Below are positions 660-16,330 of a stretch of DNA of 17,240 nt, in pieces. The notes under the pieces were generated by a model. That model was given only the letters and a program-made list of their open reading frames with translations. It did not search any database and was not told the origin of the DNA. This DNA comes from a virus (Duplodnaviria > Heunggongvirae > Uroviricota > Caudoviricetes), in IMG/VR virus record IMGVR_UViG_2671180674_000015, positions 1 to 17,240 of that record. The stretch is one strand, 5' to 3'. The stretch's first letter is position 1. Every line of letters starts with the position of its first letter. The translations under genes were made by a program, and so were the position numbers.

Positions 660-944
660 TTTGTCGCTCCATGCGCTTGCTCTTCATCTAGCGGTTAAAA
701 TATTACTTCAAATCTTTCTGTATGAAGATTTGAGCACGTTGGCCTTACATACATCTGTCGGTTGTATTTCCCTCCAGAATGCCAGCAGGACCGCACTTTG
801 TTACGCAACCAATACTATTAAGTGAAAACATTCCTAATATTTGACATAAATCATCAACAAAACACAAAGAGGTCAGACCAGATTGAAACGATAAAAACGA
901 TAATGCAAACTACGCGCCCTCGTATCACATGGAAGGTTTTACCA

Positions 945-1355
945 ATGGCTCAGGTTGCCATTTTTAAAGAAATATTCGATCAAGTGCGAAAAGATTTAAA
1001 CTGTGAATTGTTTTATTCTGAACTAAAACGTCACAACGTCTCACATTATATTTACTATCTAGCCACAGATAATATTCACATCGTGTTAGAAAACGATAAC
1101 ACCGTGTTAATAAAAGGACTTAAAAAGGTTGTAAATGTTAAATTCTCAAGAAACACGCATCTTATAGAAACGTCCTATGATAGGTTGAAATCAAGAGAAA
1201 TCACATTTCAGCAATACAGGGAAAATCTTGCTAAAGCAGGAGTTTTCCGATGGGTTACAAATATCCATGAACATAAAAGATATTACTATACCTTTGATAA
1301 TTCATTACTATTTACTGAGAGCATTCAGAACACTACACAAATCTTTCCACGCTAA
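945..1355 (+). CDS. ybcV: DUF1398-family prophage protein, YbcV-like (136 aa from ATG 945; alternative in-frame starts ATG 903, GTG 822)
   Basis: ORF 822-1355. ATG at 945 is preceded by GGAAGG and gives 136 aa. Position next to bor matches DLP12. Confidence 0.6.
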
Positions 1356-1645: not shown

Positions 1646-1939
1646 ATGAAAAAAATGCTACTCGCTACTGCGCTGGCCCTGCTTATTACAGGATGTGCTC
1701 AACAGACGTTTACTGTTCAAAACAAACCGGCAGCAGTAGCACCAAAGGAAACCATCACCCATCATTTCTTCGTTTCTGGAATTGGGCAGAAGAAAACTGT
1801 CGATGCAGCCAAAATTTGTGGCGGCGCAGAAAATGTTGTTAAAACAGAAACCCAGCAAACATTCGTAAATGGATTGCTCGGTTTTATTACTTTAGGCATT
1901 TATACTCCGCTGGAAGCGCGTGTGTATTGCTCACAATAA
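1646..1939 (+). CDS. bor: Bor outer-membrane lipoprotein (serum-resistance lysogenic conversion protein)
   Basis: 97 aa, signal peptide with lipobox LITGC. Lies opposite to and just downstream of Rz, as lambda bor does. Confidence 0.85.
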   Translation: MKKMLLATALALLITGCAQQTFTVQNKPAAVAPKETITHHFFVSGIGQKKTVDAAKICGGAENVVKTETQQTFVNGLLGFITLGIYTPLEARVYCSQ

Positions 1940-1970
1940 TTGCATGAGTTGCCCATCGATATGGGCAACT

Positions 1971-2432
1971 CTATCTGCACTGCTCATTAATATACTTCTG
2001 GGTTCCTTCCAGTTGTTTTTGCATAGTGATCAGCCTCTCTCTGAGGGTGAAATAATCCCGTTCAGCGGTGTCTGCCAGTCGGGGGGAGGCTGCATTATCC
2101 ACGCCGGAGGCGGTGGTGGCTTCACGCACTGACTGACAGACTGCTTTGATGTGCAACCGACGACGACCAGCGGCAACATCATCACGCAGAGCATCATTTT
2201 CAGCTTTAGCATCAGCTAACTCCTTCGTGTATTTTGCATCGAGCGCAGCAACATCACGCTGACGCATCTGCATGTCAGTAATTGCCGCGTTCGCCAGCTT
2301 CAGTTCTCTGGCATTTTTGTCGCGCTGGGCTTTGTAGGTAATGGCGTTATCACGGTAATGATTAACAGCCCATGACAGGTAGACGATGATGCAGATAACC
2401 AGAGCGGAGATAATCGCGGTTACTCTGTTCAT
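1971..2432 (-). CDS. Rz: Rz i-spanin (inner-membrane spanin subunit)
   Basis: 153 aa from ATG 2432, which overlaps the endolysin stop in an ATGA arrangement. N-terminal TM helix and coiled-coil-like sequence; closely matches lambda Rz as I recall it. Confidence 0.85.
2030..2212 (-). CDS. Rz1: Rz1 o-spanin lipoprotein, embedded in the +1 frame of Rz
   Basis: 60 aa, lipobox VVVGC, proline-rich (PPPPP), wholly nested inside Rz. Confidence 0.85.
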
Positions 2433-2926
2433 TGCTGACCCCACAAACAGATTTCACGCTCAATCTCACGACGAGTCATGAGACCTTTCCATTGCTTACC
2501 GCCAGCATATGTCCAGCGACGTAGCTGATCACATGCGCCTTTGATATCGCCCTGGTTTATTTTGCGAAGAAGCGTCGATGTTCTGAAATTGCCAGCACCC
2601 ACGTTGTAAACGAATGAGTAAAGAGCGCCGCGCGTTGTTTCCGGTATATCGACTTTGATGTACGGGTTAATTTGTCTGGCGACAGTGGCAAGGTCTTTAT
2701 TCAAGAGTGCTTTGCATTCTGCTTTGGTATACGTTTTACCGAGCATGATGTCTTTTCCGGTGTGTCCGTGACATACAGTCCATACGCCAACGATATCTTT
2801 GTATGGTACGTAGCTGACACCTTCCAGACCATCGTTACCACTTGGGCCAGTGATTAACACTGATGCTATAGCAATTGCTCCGCCACCAATAGCAGCAGCA
2901 ACGGCTTTTCGTAATGATGGAGGCAT
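2429..2926 (-). CDS. R: SAR endolysin (T4-lysozyme-like muramidase, phage 21 R-type)
   Basis: 165 aa. N-terminal Gly/Ala-rich signal-anchor-release segment [16 protein letters not shown], followed by an E...D...T catalytic triad pattern. Start overlaps the holin stop. Confidence 0.85.
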
Positions 2927-3141
2927 TATTCACCTCTCGCAGCCTTGCGCTTATCTTCTTTAATCTTGAAATAAAGGTTTGTCAGGTACGTCAGCAGGCC
3001 AAATACCAGGCTACCCAGCACACCTATTGCTGCCCACTGTGAGGGCGTGACTTTATCGAGCAGCTGTAAAAACCAGTACCCGGCACTACCTGCTGAGGTG
3101 CCATAGGCGACACCCGTTGTTAACTTATCCATGGATTTCAT
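2926..3141 (-). CDS. S: Class II holin / pinholin (S21-type) with dual start motif
   Basis: 71 aa, MKSMDK dual-start (Met1/Met4) giving antiholin and holin forms, two TM segments. Sits immediately upstream of the SAR endolysin. Confidence 0.85.
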
Positions 3142-3257
3142 AACCCCACCTCGCAGACAAAGCGGGTGTAAATTGAGGGAATACTACGAAACGTAACAGA
3201 CTCGGAGTCAGTGAATAACTCAGGTATTGGGTTATCAGCTAATATCGAGACTCAAAA

Positions 3258-3292
3258 AATGGAAAAACCCGCTCGACGGCGGGTTTAAGCTG
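3258..3292 (-). terminator. Intrinsic terminator on the minus strand just upstream of the holin gene
   Basis: Minus-strand read AAACCCGC-CGTCGA-GCGGGTTT followed by TTCCATTTTTTG. Confidence 0.5.
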
Positions 3293-3714
3293 TGTGACGA
3301 AGTAACCACTCTTAACAGCATAACCAATTTTTTACGTACGTAAACCACTAAATGATATTTGCGAGAATGCTACCGAGTATTGAAAACACCACTACAAATA
3401 CATAAGCAAATCTCAACAAATAACCAACAAATAATTTCCAGCGTTATTTTTAGTCAATTTAAATTGAACCTTCAAATTATAGAGCACTTATAAATAACAG
3501 CCATTAATATAAATTGGCTAATAGATTTATTTTTATTCAGTCAAGAGCCATGAATAGGATTCGATAGAAAAAAGTTCAGATAAAAATAGAGATCTACTTC
3601 ACAAATCAAACGAGAAACCAAAACTTACATCTTGAAATATTCACATTGATTAGATGAATATTTATCGCGCAGTGACATCATTTTTTAATAATAGTTCAAA
3701 AAAAAGGGCTCACG

Positions 3715-4797
3715 ATGAAAAAATTAACAGTGGCAATTTCTGCTGTAGCTGCATCAGTACTGATGGCGATGTCTGCTCAGGCAGCTGAAATTTATAATAA
3801 AGACAGTAACAAGCTGGATCTGTACGGGAAAGTTAATGCTAAGCACTACTTCTCCTCTAATGATGCAGATGATGGTGATACTACTTATGCCCGTCTTGGC
3901 TTCAAAGGTGAAACCCAAATCAACGATCAACTGACTGGTTTCGGTCAGTGGGAATATGAATTCAAAGGCAACCGCGCTGAATCTCAAGGTTCCTCCAAAG
4001 ATAAAACCCGTCTTGCCTTCGCTGGCCTGAAATTCGGTGACTACGGCTCCATCGATTACGGCCGTAACTACGGTGTAGCATACGACATCGGTGCATGGAC
4101 CGACGTTCTGCCAGAATTCGGTGGCGATACCTGGACCCAAACAGATGTATTCATGACTGGTCGCACCACAGGTGTTGCAACTTATCGTAACAACGACTTC
4201 TTTGGTCTGGTTGATGGCCTGAACTTTGCAGCTCAGTATCAGGGCAAAAATGACCGAAATGAAGTAACTGAAGCTAATGGCGATGGTTTCGGTTTCTCAA
4301 CTACTTATGAGTATGAAGGATTCGGCGTGGGTGCAACCTATGCTAAATCTGATCGCACTAATAATCAGGTTATCTACGGTAACAACGGTCTGAATGCTTC
4401 TGGTCAAAATGCTGAAGTATGGGCAGCTGGTCTGAAATATGATGCGAACAACATCTATCTGGCCACCACCTATTCTGAAACCCAGAACATGACTGTTTTT
4501 GGTAATAACCATATTGCCAACAAAGCACAAAACTTCGAAGCTGTTGCACAATATCAGTTCGACTTCGGCCTGCGTCCATCCGTTGCTTACCTGCATTCTA
4601 AAGGAAAAGACTTGGGTGTTTGGGGTGATCAGGACCTGGTTGAATATGTTGATGTAGGTGCAACCTATTACTTCAACAAAAATATGTCCACTTTTGTTGA
4701 CTACAAAATCAACCTGATTGATAAGAGCGATTTCACGAAAGCATCTGGCGTTGCTACCGATGATATCGTTGCTGTAGGTATGGTTTACCAGTTCTAA
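3715..4797 (+). CDS. nmpC: Outer-membrane general porin, OmpC/OmpF family (NmpC/Lc-like prophage porin moron)
   Basis: 360 aa, signal peptide ending AQA|AE, porin-type beta-barrel with C-terminal Phe (VGMVYQF). Located antisense between Q and the holin, as nmpC is in DLP12 and lc in PA-2. Confidence 0.8.
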
Positions 4798-5454: not shown

Positions 5455-5595
5455 TCATACTCCTGCTCCTGTCAGGGTTTTGGCGTAACTCTTCAGTATT
5501 CGGTAATCGGTCAAAACAGAACCGGGGAAACGATATAAGCGCAGGCGCACCCAGCGGCGGCGAAGACGTTCTGCCATATAAGACTCAAACATCAT
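5455..5595 (-). CDS. ylcG: Small protein YlcG-like (46 aa), start overlapping the stop of the upstream RusA-derived ORF
   Basis: Reads [46 protein letters not shown], which resembles DLP12 YlcG from memory. Below the ORF-track size cut-off. Confidence 0.55.
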
Positions 5596-6395
5596 TCATC
5601 TCCCAGTTCAGTGATGGTCAGTTCCAGCCTCCCACCTTTGGTAACAGGCATCTTCACAACGCGGTAATCAACGACCTGAGCATCATCCAGCCAGAAACCT
5701 GCTTTGGTGAGTGCGTCAAAAGCGGCCTTTTGCAGATTATCCAGGTCACGGCGACGGCGATCCGGCATGTGGCTACCGCCCATGACAGGAAGTTGTTTTA
5801 CTGGTTCAGGGATCGCCTCACCACGGTTAATTCTCGCAGTCATATGGACAAGCTCATCTGCGGCCTTACGGCGTAATTCCGCATCAGTAAGCGCATTGGC
5901 CCGCATGTTCTGATACAGGTTGGTAACCAGCCAGTAGTGCGCGTTTGATTTCCACGGATAAGACTCCGCATCCGGATACAGGCCTCGCTTCCGGCAATAC
6001 TCGTAAACCATATCAACCAGCTCGCTGACGTTTGGCAGTCCGGCGATAACGGATGCTTCTTCCCGGCACCATGCAACAAACTGCCCGGGTGATGGCAGAA
6101 ATGGTCGATTCTGCCGACGGGCTACGCGCATTCCTGCGTTAACCTGTTCCATTGTGGTGATCCCGTTTTCCCGGAAAGCCAGAACCCACTGGCGGCGGAT
6201 TTCGTTCAGTTCGTTCTGGTCACGGTTAGCCAGACTCGCCGGGAAAGTTGCCAGTAACTGGCTGAACACACCGTTGATGATCTGCGCTACCTGCTGTACC
6301 TGCGGCTTTTCGTCGTACTGTTCCGGCATGTTGTTGGCGATCCGACTCATCTGCTCACGGTCAAAGTTAACCATCTGTGCGGCGATGTTTTTCAT
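5592..6395 (-). CDS. P: Replication protein P (N-terminal ~205 aa) fused in frame to the C-terminal ~60 aa of RusA Holliday-junction resolvase
   Basis: N-terminus [16 protein letters not shown]...[11 protein letters not shown] matches lambda P. The C-terminus [55 protein letters not shown] matches the RusA C-terminus. Junction near 5775. Confidence 0.75.
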
Positions 6396-7977: not shown

Positions 7978-8088
7978 ATGCCCTCCATAGTAAACACGAA
8001 TAAAAAAATACAATATGTACTTTACGAATACAAGTAAAAATACATATTGTGCATGGATGGTTCCAGTACAAAGCGTAATAATAAGGAC
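7978..8088. promoter_or_regulatory. Divergent OR/PR/PRM region with three operator-like sites
   Basis: Sites at 8011-8022 (ACAATATGTACT), 8041-8052 (ATACATATTGTG) and 8066-8080 (AGTACAAAGCGTAAT) resemble the OL palindrome AGTACATATCGTACT. A -10-like TAATAT at 8077-8082 places a PRM start at about the cI ATG (leaderless). Confidence 0.5.
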
Positions 8089-8748
8089 ATGAAAATGAAA
8101 TGGTATGAACTGGCTAGATCCAGAATGAAAGAGCTCGGCATAACTCAAGAGAAGTTAGCCGAAGAACTAGGTATGACGCAGGGTGGGATTGGACACTGGT
8201 TGCGCGGATCTCGTCATCCATCTCTTAGTGATATTGGTGTGGTGTTTAAATACCTTGGTATTGATAACATATCATTCAACCACGACGGGACATTTTCACC
8301 TGTTGGCGAATACTCATCGGCCCCAGTTAAAAAACAATATGAGTACCCTGTTTTTTCTCATGTTCAGGCTGGGATGTTCTCTCCAGAACTCAGAACCTTT
8401 ACCAAAGGCGATGCGGAGAGATTGGTAAGCACAACCAAAAAAGCCAGTGACTCTGCATTCTGGCTTGAGGTTGAAGGTAACTCAATGACCGCACCAACAG
8501 GTTCCAAGCCCAGCTTTCCTGACGGGATGTTAATTCTGGTTGACCCTGAGCAGGCTGTTGAGCCAGGCGATTTCTGTATAGCCAGACTTGGTGGTGATGA
8601 GTTTACCTTCAAGAAACTGATCAGGGATAGCGGTCAGGTGTTTCTACAGCCACTAAACCCACAATACCCAATGATCCCATGCAATGAGAGTTGTTCCGTT
8701 GTGGGGAAAGTTATCGCTAGTCAGTGGCCTGAAGAGACGTTTGGGTGA
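8089..8748 (+). CDS. cI: CI prophage repressor, chimeric: heterologous N-terminal HTH domain with lambda-like linker and S24 autocleavage C-terminal domain
   Basis: From [17 protein letters not shown] through the C-terminal ...[12 protein letters not shown] it matches lambda CI (Ala-Gly cleavage site, Ser in GNSM, Lys in KKL). The N-terminal [24 protein letters not shown] is not lambda-like. ATG at 8089 (or 8095). Confidence 0.85.
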
Positions 8749-8794
8749 CAAGAAGCACAGGTATTAACAATAACTTTCATGGTGATACGAATCA

Positions 8795-9337
8795 GTGGCT
8801 AAAAAAGGCGACTTTAAGCCTACCCAGAAAGAGGTTGACCAAGCTATTACTCGCTTGAAAAAAGTAACTTTTAGCGGAGTTACATGGACCGGAAGTGAGG
8901 GACGAACCCCAATCTGGTTTAAATTGGATCTCAAAGCTTTTGATGAAATTGGCAACCCAATCACAGGCATAAGATTTATGCTTCACTGGCGTCCTCCTAT
9001 CGTTGAAGGGGTGGATATAGTGAAGATTTCATTTGTGATGTTTCTTCATGACAGGCGCATTTACGCGCTTGACCCGTACCCTGCGGATAACAAGCCACAC
9101 CGTAATAAATCTATAGTGAACCATCCAGATTTTGTTGAGGTGGCTCGAGGTCCTCACTATCACATGTACTTCGAATCAGCTGGGGAAGAAATTGCACTTA
9201 AGCTTGAAACGAACATCAAGCCAGATGATTTTTTTGGCTACTGGAATTATTTTTGCGAGGCGCTTAATATCATATATGAAGGCAGCCCACCTTTACCTAA
9301 TCAAGATAAATCAGGTCAGCTATCATGGGAAATGTAA
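8795..9337 (+). CDS. Hypothetical protein (180 aa), first gene of an unknown two-gene cassette in the rexA/rexB position
   Basis: ORF opens with GTG at 8795, 46 nt after the cI stop and with no intervening terminator. No motif I recognise. 3' end overlaps the next ORF by 13 nt. Confidence 0.55.
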   Translation: MAKKGDFKPTQKEVDQAITRLKKVTFSGVTWTGSEGRTPIWFKLDLKAFDEIGNPITGIRFMLHWRPPIVEGVDIVKISFVMFLHDRRIYALDPYPADNKPHRNKSIVNHPDFVEVARGPHYHMYFESAGEEIALKLETNIKPDDFFGYWNYFCEALNIIYEGSPPLPNQDKSGQLSWEM

Positions 9338-10101
9338 CGTGTTCAACAGTCATATCTAAGCTCGGGTTTGAATGCCACCCAATGAGCGACACGTTGCTGC
9401 GCGTTATTAGTCCCTTCACATACTACGATGATTGTGAGCAGATAAGTGTATTCGTTCAAGAGATGGGTGGTCAGTATAGGGTTACAGACTACTGCGATAC
9501 ATTGATGAATATTGAATCACGCGGCATCCACCTGACTAAAAAGAAAATTGATCTGATCAGGTCATCACTCGCTTCGCAAGGAATTTCATTAAATGACTCT
9601 GGAGAGATATCTGCGTGGGCAGATGAGTCGTCCGTTGGACAGGTAACTGCAAATGTTATTCGTGGTGGGATTCTTGCATCCGCCCAAACTGCTGATTGGT
9701 ATGCTGAGGTCAAAGACGATAAGTTCGAAAAATGTGTAATCAGTTACTTAAAATCAGCAGGGCTTGGGAAGCGACTAGCCTTAAAGGAAAAAGTGAAAGG
9801 TATTAGTGGGCATAACATTACTGTTCCGTTAACGCTAAGGAATGAGTCTCGACTAATACCACCAAAACGCGGGTTTACGGTAAGCCTTGCCAGCAGTAAG
9901 GGATGGAATACTGCCCACTCAACAGTTGGGAAGATTGTTGACTTAAGTCAGGTCGTTCCTGACATAAACAATAGATTTGTAATAGTTGACAGCGATGGGT
10001 TAACACCTGAGCTACAGCAACTATCACTACTATTTAATGATACCGCACGAGTGTTGCCATTCCATACCAGAGACTCTTGGATTGAGTCTCTGGTAGCCTA
10101 G
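9325..10101 (+). CDS. Hypothetical protein (258 aa from ATG 9325; alternative ATG 9382), second gene of the cassette
   Basis: Long ORF overlapping the upstream ORF's stop, followed directly by a strong terminator. No recognised catalytic motif. Confidence 0.55.
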   Translation: MGNVTCSTVISKLGFECHPMSDTLLRVISPFTYYDDCEQISVFVQEMGGQYRVTDYCDTLMNIESRGIHLTKKKIDLIRSSLASQGISLNDSGEISAWADESSVGQVTANVIRGGILASAQTADWYAEVKDDKFEKCVISYLKSAGLGKRLALKEKVKGISGHNITVPLTLRNESRLIPPKRGFTVSLASSKGWNTAHSTVGKIVDLSQVVPDINNRFVIVDSDGLTPELQQLSLLFNDTARVLPFHTRDSWIESLVA

Positions 10102-10133
10102 AAAAACCCGGCCTCAGCGCCGGGTTTTCTTTG
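10102..10133 (+). terminator. Intrinsic terminator after the immunity-region cassette (t-imm-like)
   Basis: GAAAAACCCGGC-ctcagc-GCCGGGTTTTCTTTG starting right after the TAG stop. Confidence 0.65.
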
Positions 10134-10305
10134 CCTCACGATCGCCCCACCTAAAAACACATAACCAATTGTATTTATTGAAAAATAAATAGATGCAACC
10201 CACTAAACCACGCAATTCTGATCTCTCCTTACATCGCCGAGGCAATACATCCACGCTAAAAAACAACACTATTAAATACAAAGCGTTATAAAAAACCACG
10301 CCAAC

Positions 10306-10356
10306 TTACAACAAATTGTATTGATCTTGTAAAGTACATATCGTACTATTTAACCG
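10306..10356 (+). promoter_or_regulatory. PL promoter with OL operator(s)
   Basis: -35 TTGATC (10321-10326), 17-nt spacer, -10 TACTAT (10344-10349). Palindromic operator AGTACATATCGTACT (10333-10347) overlaps the spacer and -10; a second related site is at 10311-10322. Confidence 0.5.
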
Positions 10357-10440: not shown

Positions 10441-10538
10441 GATCACCCAACCACATAAGCTGTGGGATGCAATGCCGAAGCAACCGTCTCAGGAGGAGCT
10501 TCGAGATTGCATCGCCAAAGTTTATTCGGGAGGAATCC

Positions 10539-10811
10539 ATGTCCAGAAAAACAGAATTTAAAGGCACCGCAGCTTCTCGCCGTAGAGCTCGTCGCGCAAA
10601 TCTGCAAAGTCAGGAGGCGATCAGCTCCGACAAGCTACACAGGCCAACCCCTTCACGAGTGGTCTTGCAATGCAAGCGCAAACCAGCAATGAGAGCAGAA
10701 GTGATAACTCTGACAACGTTGACCAGAAAATATGAAGGTTCAACTTGTCTTCCGAACGTAGCTCTTTACGCGGCAGGCTACCGGAAATCAAAACAACTGA
10801 CGGCGAGATGA
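10539..10811 (+). CDS. N: N-type transcription antiterminator (arginine-rich motif; P22 gene 24-like C-terminus)
   Basis: 90 aa from ATG 10539 with RBS GGGAGGA. N-terminal ARM GTAASRRRARRA; C-terminal ...LPNVALYAAGYRKSKQLTAR. First gene downstream of PL and nutL. Confidence 0.75.
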   Translation: MSRKTEFKGTAASRRRARRANLQSQEAISSDKLHRPTPSRVVLQCKRKPAMRAEVITLTTLTRKYEGSTCLPNVALYAAGYRKSKQLTAR

Positions 10812-10827
10812 TAAATTCATTTGCTAA

Positions 10828-11409
10828 TTACTTGTTTTTGCCATGCTTATCCTGAGCGATAAGTTCATCCATAAGGCTGTCTGCCTTCCCGGCAAACCGA
10901 ATGTAGCACTCATTTCTATAGCGTTCCGGGATAACAAAACGGTCGATTTCAGGATATCCAGTAGCAGAAGGTATCCGAATAAGAAGCCCTTTTTCGAGCA
11001 ATGAGATTGCTTCAGGGCTTCCCTTTTCTGTCTTTAGCTGGTTATTCGCGGCTACAGCGAATGCCAAATACGCTCTTTCTCCAAGAGTTAACGAATCAAA
11101 CAAATCTTGCACATATTTTTCTTCTTTAGATTTGCGCTTCTGAGCAGCGGATACCTCAATTCTTTCAGTCACAGCGTGATAAGCGGAATTAACAACACCG
11201 TTAAGCACATAGCTAACGCAGAACAACAGGATGTAATACATCCAATAATAAGGAAGGATTTCTGGATTATGCAGGTTTATCCATTCTTTTACGCTTACCG
11301 GCATAACAATAATCAATATGATCAGGATGATTAGCATATGAATCAACTGTTTAAGTGTCATTCCTTGCAGGAAAAAATGCATTAGTTCCTGCCACCATGA
11401 GTTGTTCAT
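10828..11409 (-). CDS. sieB: Superinfection exclusion protein B (SieB)-like membrane protein
   Basis: 193 aa, hydrophobic N-terminal segment LIHMLIILIILIIVMPV. Convergent with and directly abutting N, as lambda sieB is. Confidence 0.7.
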   Translation of the reverse strand: MNNSWWQELMHFFLQGMTLKQLIHMLIILIILIIVMPVSVKEWINLHNPEILPYYWMYYILLFCVSYVLNGVVNSAYHAVTERIEVSAAQKRKSKEEKYVQDLFDSLTLGERAYLAFAVAANNQLKTEKGSPEAISLLEKGLLIRIPSATGYPEIDRFVIPERYRNECYIRFAGKADSLMDELIAQDKHGKNK

Positions 11410-12374: not shown

Positions 12375-12446
12375 GCGCTGCGTTACCGCATACCAATAAC
12401 GCTTCACTCGAGGCGTTTTTCGTTATGTATAAATAAGGAGCACACC

Positions 12447-12611
12447 ATGCAATATGCCATTGCAGGGTGGCCTGTTGCTGGCTGCTCTTCCGAATCTTTA
12501 CTTGAACGAATCACCCGTAAATTACGTGACGGATGGAAACGCCTTATCGACATACTTAATCAGCCAGGAGTCCCAAAAAATGGATCAAACACTTATGGCT
12601 ATCCAGACTAA
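12447..12611 (+). CDS. cIII: CIII (FtsH inhibitor that stabilises CII)
   Basis: 54 aa, [54 protein letters not shown]. Below the ORF-track cut-off. Confidence 0.8.
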   Translation: MQYAIAGWPVAGCSSESLLERITRKLRDGWKRLIDILNQPGVPKNGSNTYGYPD

Positions 12612-15727: not shown

Positions 15728-16330
15728 TCATTCAGTATCATCACGCGCGGTCTGTGCATATGTTACTACCGCACCTAATGTATTAATTTTCTTTTCAACA
15801 TAGATAATATTATCGTACTCATAATTGCCATACGGATAGCAAATGCGAATATTCTCATGTAGATCGGGGTCATCCACCTCAGCTCCAGAACAACTTTTTG
15901 AACTACCGGAAGTATACCGATACGGTGCAACATAAGACGATGTCTCTCCAGGCAAAAAATAAGTTAGTGTTGTAAGGGGTATAATCAGAAAAAATCCAGC
16001 AAATATGCACATCCCTGCATAAACCTTAAGGTATGCTGACAGACTCTTCCAGCCGCTTTGTTTTACTATCCCCTTCTTAACCCAAAACAGAGATAACAGA
16101 AAAGCTATTCCCATGCTAAACAGAATGTAATAGTGGGATATACTCTGATTAAGAAACGTGACCCTGTAAATATCTGCCCGCCACCAGAAGAAAAGGAAAA
16201 TAAAGATCAGGCCTGAAACTGTCATGCAAATCAAATAAGGATACGAATCTTTTTTCATGTTTAGCGCCCATAAAATTTTTCCTGCCCCGGACAAATTTAC
16301 CATCCATTTTTTGCGCAGAAAATAGCTCAT
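15728..16330 (-). CDS. Hypothetical integral membrane protein (about 4 TM segments plus Cys/Tyr-rich C-terminal domain); start uncertain (ATG 16330, 16303 or 16258)
   Basis: 200-aa ORF on the strand opposite the PL operon. Hydrophobic stretches LICMTVSGLIFIFLFFWW, ILFSMGIAFLLSLFWV, GMCIFAGFFLIIPLTTL. Followed by hairpin CGAGGTAA/attata/TTACCTCG at 15671-15692. Confidence 0.5.
   Translation of the reverse strand: MSYFLRKKWMVNLSGAGKILWALNMKKDSYPYLICMTVSGLIFIFLFFWWRADIYRVTFLNQSISHYYILFSMGIAFLLSLFWVKKGIVKQSGWKSLSAYLKVYAGMCIFAGFFLIIPLTTLTYFLPGETSSYVAPYRYTSGSSKSCSGAEVDDPDLHENIRICYPYGNYEYDNIIYVEKKINTLGAVVTYAQTARDDTE

Follow-up and report, generated by a model that had tools for sequence, protein, structure and literature searches.

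The interval between cI and N in lambdoid phages has been described as mosaic and as a location of accessory genes. In lambda it holds rexA and rexB, a two-gene unit on the cI strand located between the repressor gene and a terminator that precedes OL/PL. Other defence genes are known immediately behind a prophage repressor, namely bstA, whose transcription from the cI promoter was seen under every condition tested and whose product is an abortive-infection protein, and DS-34, a "CI plus hypothetical" unit validated in the DefensePredictor study (DeWeirdt et al., Science 2026, PMC13092281). The same study newly implicated the DUF1829 domain in defence and validated it only in DS-6B/HipAD, a pair for which toxin-antitoxin logic was proposed, with DS-6B as the DNA-binding neutraliser of a kinase toxin (PMC13092281). 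Additional candidates, PDC-M24 included, are listed as the PDC systems of PADLOC and are unpublished. Our literature searches found no characterisation of DUF1828, DUF6978, DUF1829 or PDC-M24. Here we describe a two-gene cassette, consisting of genes A and B, in this slot. With moderate confidence we interpret it as a two-protein anti-phage system expressed in lysogens and as a swappable accessory module of the lambdoid cI-to-N slot.

The stretch of DNA analysed (hereafter the window; 17,240 nt) is a lambdoid prophage with its gene order reversed relative to the lambda map. Q, P, O, cII and cro are found on the minus strand, followed on the plus strand by cI, genes A and B, and N, and beyond N by sieB (minus strand), ea10, cIII/kil, gam, bet and exo. 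The OR operator region (8003-8050) is located between cro and cI, is expected to contain PRM and PR, and has inverted repeats inside 8010-8050. A 23-nt arm of this region (8003-8025) shows 87% complementarity to 10329-10351 in the OL/PL operator region (10273-10351), which is positioned upstream of N and carries repeats related to the OR operators. The first gene of the presumed operon encodes a cI-type repressor (8053-8748, plus strand) with matches to Pfam Peptidase_S24 (E = 1e-28) and HTH_3 (E = 2e-10), and its start was set through 97% DNA identity to the annotated gp50 of phage ev207. The N antiterminator ORF (10467-10811, plus strand; Pfam N_peptide, E = 2e-32) forms the downstream boundary of the slot.

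Gene A (8795-9337, plus strand) begins with GTG and encodes 180 aa, gene B (9325-10101, plus strand) begins with ATG and encodes 258 aa, and the two reading frames overlap by 13 nt. The original prediction, which had been made from the DNA sequence alone, placed two overlapping ORFs after cI on the same strand, and RefSeq/PGAP agrees with both frames. In E. coli genomes PGAP lists A as WP_001074607.1 (hypothetical protein) and B as WP_000528776.1 (DUF1828 domain-containing protein). The length of B had been given as about 240-258 aa. Residues C6, L13 and C17 precede the internal Met20 and do not vary even among homologues that share 21-35% identity, and the start yielding 258 aa is therefore correct rather than the alternative of about 240 aa. 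Compared with their homologues, A and B show dN/dS values of 0.05-0.10 (where dS is unsaturated), and the pair is kept in more than 90 loci. From this substitution pattern and the conservation of the pair we conclude that A and B are real genes. Opposite-strand ORFs of 50-74 aa within the cassette were judged spurious, as the frames of A and B are under strong purifying selection. A search for internal promoters in the cassette returned 4 sites, with 5.4 expected by chance, and thus no excess; no Rfam family was found inside 8795-10133.

The spacer between cI and A (46 nt, 8749-8794, plus strand) carries GGTGA 8 nt ahead of the GTG start. It had been described as devoid of a terminator, which RNA folding supported: the predicted structure is worth -7.4 kcal/mol, and 183 of 200 shuffled sequences fold at least as well, so that no stable structure is present. 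At the other end of the cassette, directly after the stop codon of gene B, an intrinsic terminator closes the cI-A-B unit (10100-10133, plus strand), with a GC hairpin followed by UUUUCUUU. Its folding energy is -20.2 kcal/mol (z = -3.9), and none of 200 shuffled sequences was equally stable. A strong terminator ahead of OL/PL had been predicted at this point; it is moreover 97% identical to lambda 35798-35831, a sequence that spans the rexB stop codon. We take this lambda element to be t_imm, the terminator of the cI-rexA-rexB transcripts. A consensus terminator scanner made no call at 10100-10133, probably because A/U flanks lengthen the stem into the U-tract. The rexAB-slot position claimed for the cassette was confirmed in its exact form: it fills the rexAB interval from cI to the lambda-type terminator and reuses the terminator of lambda. 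From this anatomy we strongly infer that A and B are co-transcribed with cI.

Slot, strand, two-gene organisation and terminator sequence are thus held in common with rexAB, whereas the proteins are different. As the original prediction had supposed, neither A nor B is similar to RexA (279 aa) or RexB (144 aa); blastp gave nothing better than E = 0.88, profiles of the A and B families reached about 0 bits or less with either Rex protein, and no PADLOC Rex model matched. The maximum Kyte-Doolittle hydropathy over 19 residues is 1.22 in A and 0.79 in B, compared to 2.39 in RexB, where 51 windows reach at least 1.6. No signal peptide or membrane segment was evident in A or B, and by their sequences both proteins are cytoplasmic. 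Because A and B lack a membrane segment, unlike RexB, a mechanism based on a membrane-depolarising channel is unlikely. Judging from the available family matches, BstA and the DS-34 protein likewise have no kinship with A and B. The known cargo of this slot (lambda rexAB, bstA, DS-34, and the candidate PDC-S43 in some loci) supports a role of the cassette in defence.

Several other features of the window were recorded. Just past N, a SieB superinfection-exclusion gene (10828-11409, minus strand; Pfam E = 7e-25) gives the immunity-left region a second exclusion function beside the cassette. The lambda cIII thermoregulator element of Rfam was found at 12434-12492 (plus strand) with 84 bits against a gathering score of 50. 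Between Q and the holin gene, a 360-aa ORF of lysogenic-conversion type (3715-4797, plus strand) corresponds to the OmpC/OmpD/NmpC-type porin annotated at that position in ev017 and related phages. A single 267-aa ORF (5592-6395, minus strand) combines two pieces, a lambda P replication-protein domain at residues 38-198 and a C-terminal portion of RusA that covers profile positions 76-123; relative to phage ev017, approximately 2 kb comprising ren, ninB, a methyltransferase gene, a DUF2591 gene and the start of rusA is absent, and the prophage is probably replication-defective. A 200-aa ORF (15728-16330, minus strand) had no Pfam match, and a 177-aa ORF (822-1355, plus strand) encodes a DUF1398 protein.

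In a collection of 5426 complete E. coli genomes, the cassette of the window was found near-identical in 61, including O104:H4, where it resides in a non-Stx prophage adjoining ynfH. A sister allele, with protein identities of 40% (A) and 51% (B) to the window, was present in 241 genomes, including Nissle 1917 (prophage 3) and ATCC 11775, and the two alleles combined account for 302 of the 5426. The sister allele occupies the same slot in phages ev207, ev017, PhiR57_1 and PhiR63_2 and in an Stx1a phage. When the window was aligned to ev207, both flanks were 96-97% identical, cI included, and the stretch from 8838 to 10069 was unalignable, which places the replacement of the allele precisely within the cassette. 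In strain GF4 the window allele is found beside a different cI. Allelic replacement within conserved flanks is a pattern typical of defence genes.

A survey of co-occurrence downstream of cI, suggested together with the original prediction, was performed on 80 viral loci from IMG/VR. A is found directly ahead of B in 79 of them, with an overlap of 13 or 4 nt, and in 77 a cI-like repressor gene is located upstream on the same strand. The exception to the A-B arrangement is one locus (L057, IMGVR_UViG_2548876529_000017, approximately 1828-3896) in which no A was detected and B appears shortened (3222-3896), with a protein match of 100% identity; this may be a disrupted or frameshifted copy. Outside E. 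coli, the same arrangement was seen in all six species representatives (Pantoea, two Providencia, Yersinia, Xenorhabdus and Izhakiella). In Pseudomonas phage phPA-G, Burkholderia phage phi644-2 (gp48/gp47) and a Helicobacter prophage, distant pairs with 21-29% identity and a 4-nt overlap occupy the repressor region and share its strand. Four of five distant metagenomic A representatives are directly followed by a DUF1828 protein, the neighbour of the fifth being cut off, and one distant metagenomic pair also follows an S24 repressor. The slot is accordingly kept across many repressor types and several bacterial classes. In Pseudomonas phage VB_PaD_phPA-G (PP083311.1; L010, 2920-3504) the A-like gene, which matches the family profile with E = 6e-28, is missing from the GenBank annotation; it sits in a 670-nt "gap" immediately upstream of the DUF1828 gene and overlaps it. 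An additional gene of 113 aa separates cI from A in Providencia, Izhakiella and several viral contigs (L005 5052-5393, L006 5053-5394, L009 5044-5385, and L060-L064, e.g. L061 3052-3393). Its product matches Pfam DUF3024 (E = 3e-27) and PADLOC PDC-S43 (E = 6e-37), and candidate defence genes thus stack in the slot.

At 70% identity the repressors of the surveyed loci form 20 clusters; the B proteins form 2 allele groups. These data bear on the alternative that the pair modulates the lysis-lysogeny switch or the induction of the phage itself, for instance by binding operator DNA or cI, as reported for lambda RexA. A and B are presumably co-transcribed with the repressor, RexA is reported, in work citing Thomason 2019, to modulate the bistable switch and to bind at PRM, and the modelled fold of B, which resembles a DNA enzyme and has no conserved canonical active site (see below), would be compatible with DNA binding. 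However, a single cassette allele accompanies at least 10 of the repressor clusters and one repressor cluster carries both alleles, which argues against a repressor- or operator-specific partner, and no helix-turn-helix domain is present in A or B. We therefore consider a switch modulator improbable, and proceed with the interpretation of the cassette as an anti-phage system.

The original prediction had called the pair unrecognised. It was not wholly so, since B carries DUF1828, PDC-M24 models match weakly, and DefensePredictor lists the sister allele. Window B matches the PADLOC PDC-M24B models with E values of 4.2e-7 and 8.6e-7; the ev207 allele reaches 4.7e-10, with residues 2-249 aligned to positions 4-254 of the 256-position model, and distant phage B homologues go down to 4.5e-13. 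Matches of A to PDC-M24A are weak: window A has an E value of 3.8e-4 over residues 98-160 only (the C-terminal third), the ev207 allele 4.8e-4 and phi644-2 gp48 0.023, and two distant A-like proteins have no match. The cassette agrees with PDC-M24 in gene order (A first), adjacency, orientation and sizes, a protein of about 150-185 aa being followed by one of about 250 aa, but the window proteins are only remote matches to it (A, E = 4e-4; B, E = 4e-7). In Tables S5 and S10 of the DefensePredictor study the sister allele is entered as "Predicted novel defense gene" (WP_001062368, WP_000968517/8; log-odds of about 5-6), and the cluster representative for the A-type protein is WP_001074607, the A of the window itself (PMC13092281). 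The pair is absent from the tables of 94 tested and 42 validated units (S6-S8) of that study (PMC13092281). The suggestion of an exclusion system, originally drawn from position, has therefore gained a stronger positional argument and two computational supports, and the function itself stays at the level of inference.

The predictor matches also bear on the idea that the cassette is lysogenic-conversion cargo that serves the host in stress tolerance, virulence or some other way not connected with phages, or a selfish nuclease-like element. That the cI-N region is a general accessory-gene site, and that the cassette is found in both pathogenic O104:H4 and probiotic Nissle 1917, would be in line with such cargo. 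On the other hand, A and B are flagged by two independent defence predictors, both are cytoplasmic and show no evident signal peptide or membrane segment, and a turnover of alleles between conserved flanks is more in keeping with an arms race. We regard this explanation as very unlikely and retain the anti-phage interpretation.

Profile and fold searches, likewise suggested with the original prediction, gave different results for the two proteins, with a DUF1828 domain and a restriction-endonuclease-like domain in B and a weak DUF6978 match with no fold relative in A. Protein A matches phrog_2017 (E = 7e-74). Its match to Pfam DUF6978 (23.6 bits, below the cutoff of 29.6) is limited to residues 98-159, but similarly weak matches were seen in 30 of 34 A homologues (best E = 2e-6), and a remote kinship to DUF6978 is likely from these sequence comparisons. 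The family is small, with 22 representative clusters at E values of 0.001 or better among 1.84 billion proteins. In the AlphaFold2 model (pLDDT 87, pTM 0.83) A consists of an N-terminal helix, approximately 8 beta strands, a C-terminal helix and a disordered tail, and a fold search with this model returned no solved structural relative. Invariant or nearly invariant down to approximately 20% identity are W31, R88, D93, H102, N104, G119, H121, H123, F153 and P168. D93, H102, N104, H121 and H123 form a conserved cluster, and the disordered C-terminal tail (...SGQLSWEM) is conserved as well, its "GQ..L" motif being largely retained across homologues. The A and B family profiles had no match among all PDB sequences even at E = 10, and NCBIfam holds no family for either protein.

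In protein B, residues 30-112 match DUF1828 with 41 bits (Pfam cutoff 22), as do all 23 aligned B homologues. The structure model (pLDDT 81, pTM 0.52) contains two domains. The N-terminal DUF1828 domain is predicted to adopt a type III chaperone-like fold, and the C-terminal domain a DUF1829-like PD-(D/E)xK fold with the restriction-endonuclease-like order alpha-beta-beta-beta-alpha-beta. By hmmscan, DUF1829 was not matched in window B or its 22 close homologues. Distant relatives pass the DUF1829 cutoff of 22.2 (PDDEXK clan), with 23.4 bits for phi644-2 gp47 and 29.1 bits for the Helicobacter protein, and for residues 155-241 of the sister allele HHpred gave DUF1829 a probability of 98.8% (DefensePredictor Table S5, PMC13092281). 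The canonical D...(D/E)xK residues, with positions assigned from secondary structure rather than three-dimensional superposition, are not conserved across the B family: strand 2 starts with His163 instead of Asp, and strand 3 (181-186) is without an acidic residue or Lys conserved across the family. The family-wide invariants of the C-terminal domain are V138, S161 and D206, and H163 is nearly invariant; S161, H163 and D206 are its sole persisting polar residues. The N-terminal domain keeps C6, C17, D36, D55, G93 and E94, and D58 is nearly invariant. Since the canonical PD-(D/E)xK residues are not conserved, the C-terminal domain may bind rather than cut. The His/Asn/Asp cluster of A and the acidic cluster of the B N-terminal domain (D36, D55, D58, E94) are equally good candidates for an active or ligand-binding site.

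The two folds joined in B are combined in none of the characterised defence systems that we found. Can2/Card1 and NucC link a sensor to a PD-(D/E)xK effector nuclease, but B has no CARF or cyclic-nucleotide-binding domain. With respect to the type II restriction endonucleases PspGI, NgoMIV and BsoBI, the cassette differs in having no methyltransferase partner, and the canonical catalytic residues of B are not conserved. DS-6B/HipAD (DUF3037 + DUF1829) shares the DUF1829 domain of the PD-(D/E)xK clan, but has a HipA-like kinase as partner, and the N-terminal domain of DS-6B is DUF3037, not DUF1828. As the sole validated DUF1829 protein, DS-6B is read as the antitoxin-like DNA-binding partner of a kinase toxin, and A and B might by extension constitute a toxin-antitoxin-like addiction module, in which one protein is toxic, the other neutralises it, and the prophage is stabilised without a dedicated anti-phage role. 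The tight coupling of the overlapping pair is consistent with such a module, and the O104:H4 prophage with the cassette also holds several toxin-antitoxin genes. We judge this explanation unlikely, however: A and B match no known toxin or antitoxin family (Pfam, NCBIfam, PADLOC), the strict position after cI is untypical of toxin-antitoxin modules, and many such modules serve defence anyway, so that the explanation overlaps with our own.

Our preferred interpretation, an anti-phage system, is based on the slot, the conservation across repressor types and bacterial classes, the allelic turnover, the two independent predictors, and the nuclease-like fold. Against it stand the weak PDC-M24 matches, the missing canonical triad, and the fold of A, which has no relative that would suggest an activity. 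If the interpretation is correct, A and B would be transcribed with cI from PRM/PRE, and transcription would end at the lambda-type terminator. The overlapping frames would couple translation, and A and B would act as a complex. The C-terminal tail of A, which is disordered yet conserved, may dock on the chaperone-like DUF1828 domain of B. Either A or the DUF1828 domain would sense that a heterologous phage has infected the cell. Sensing would then trigger the effector, most plausibly cleavage or binding of nucleic acid by the restriction-endonuclease-fold domain of B, and the phage would be blocked or the infection aborted. The case for this last step suffers from the lack of the canonical catalytic triad. 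We therefore propose only tentatively a translationally coupled A-B complex that senses heterologous phages in lysogens and acts through the nuclease-fold domain of B, given that no canonical active site is present and that conservation is strongest at other sites. We hold it possible, at a similarly low level of confidence, that the pair is a mechanistically new abortive-infection or exclusion machine, in which A, with its unprecedented fold, controls or complements the chaperone-like sensor and degenerate restriction-endonuclease fold of B and contacts B through its tail. The active site would then be non-canonical, either the DUF1828 acidic cluster or a composite A-B site.

In Nissle 1917 the sister allele is located directly after the repressor of prophage 3 (L014, NZ_CP022686.1 4789150-4791191). 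A 2018 study attributed the resistance of Nissle to lambda and Stx phages in part to prophage 3 and proposed a further prophage factor, for which the sister-allele cassette is a candidate. The "pr" study of Nissle 1917 cloned a 410-bp fragment and has no direct bearing on A or B.

The cassette represents a clean replacement of rexAB that reuses the lambda terminator, and its two alleles have been swapped between immunity regions that are otherwise identical. Were the pair to act in phage defence, an unlisted resistance determinant would be present in approximately 1 in 18 complete E. coli genomes (302 of 5426), among them the probiotic Nissle 1917, the type strain of the species and the 2011 O104:H4 outbreak lineage. 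Such a determinant would be relevant to phage therapy and to how Stx phages spread. At 1.3 kb the system is small, and it is native to E. coli. Since A has no structural relative and the folds of B are joined in none of the characterised defence systems that we found, its mechanism could reveal a new sensing or effector principle.
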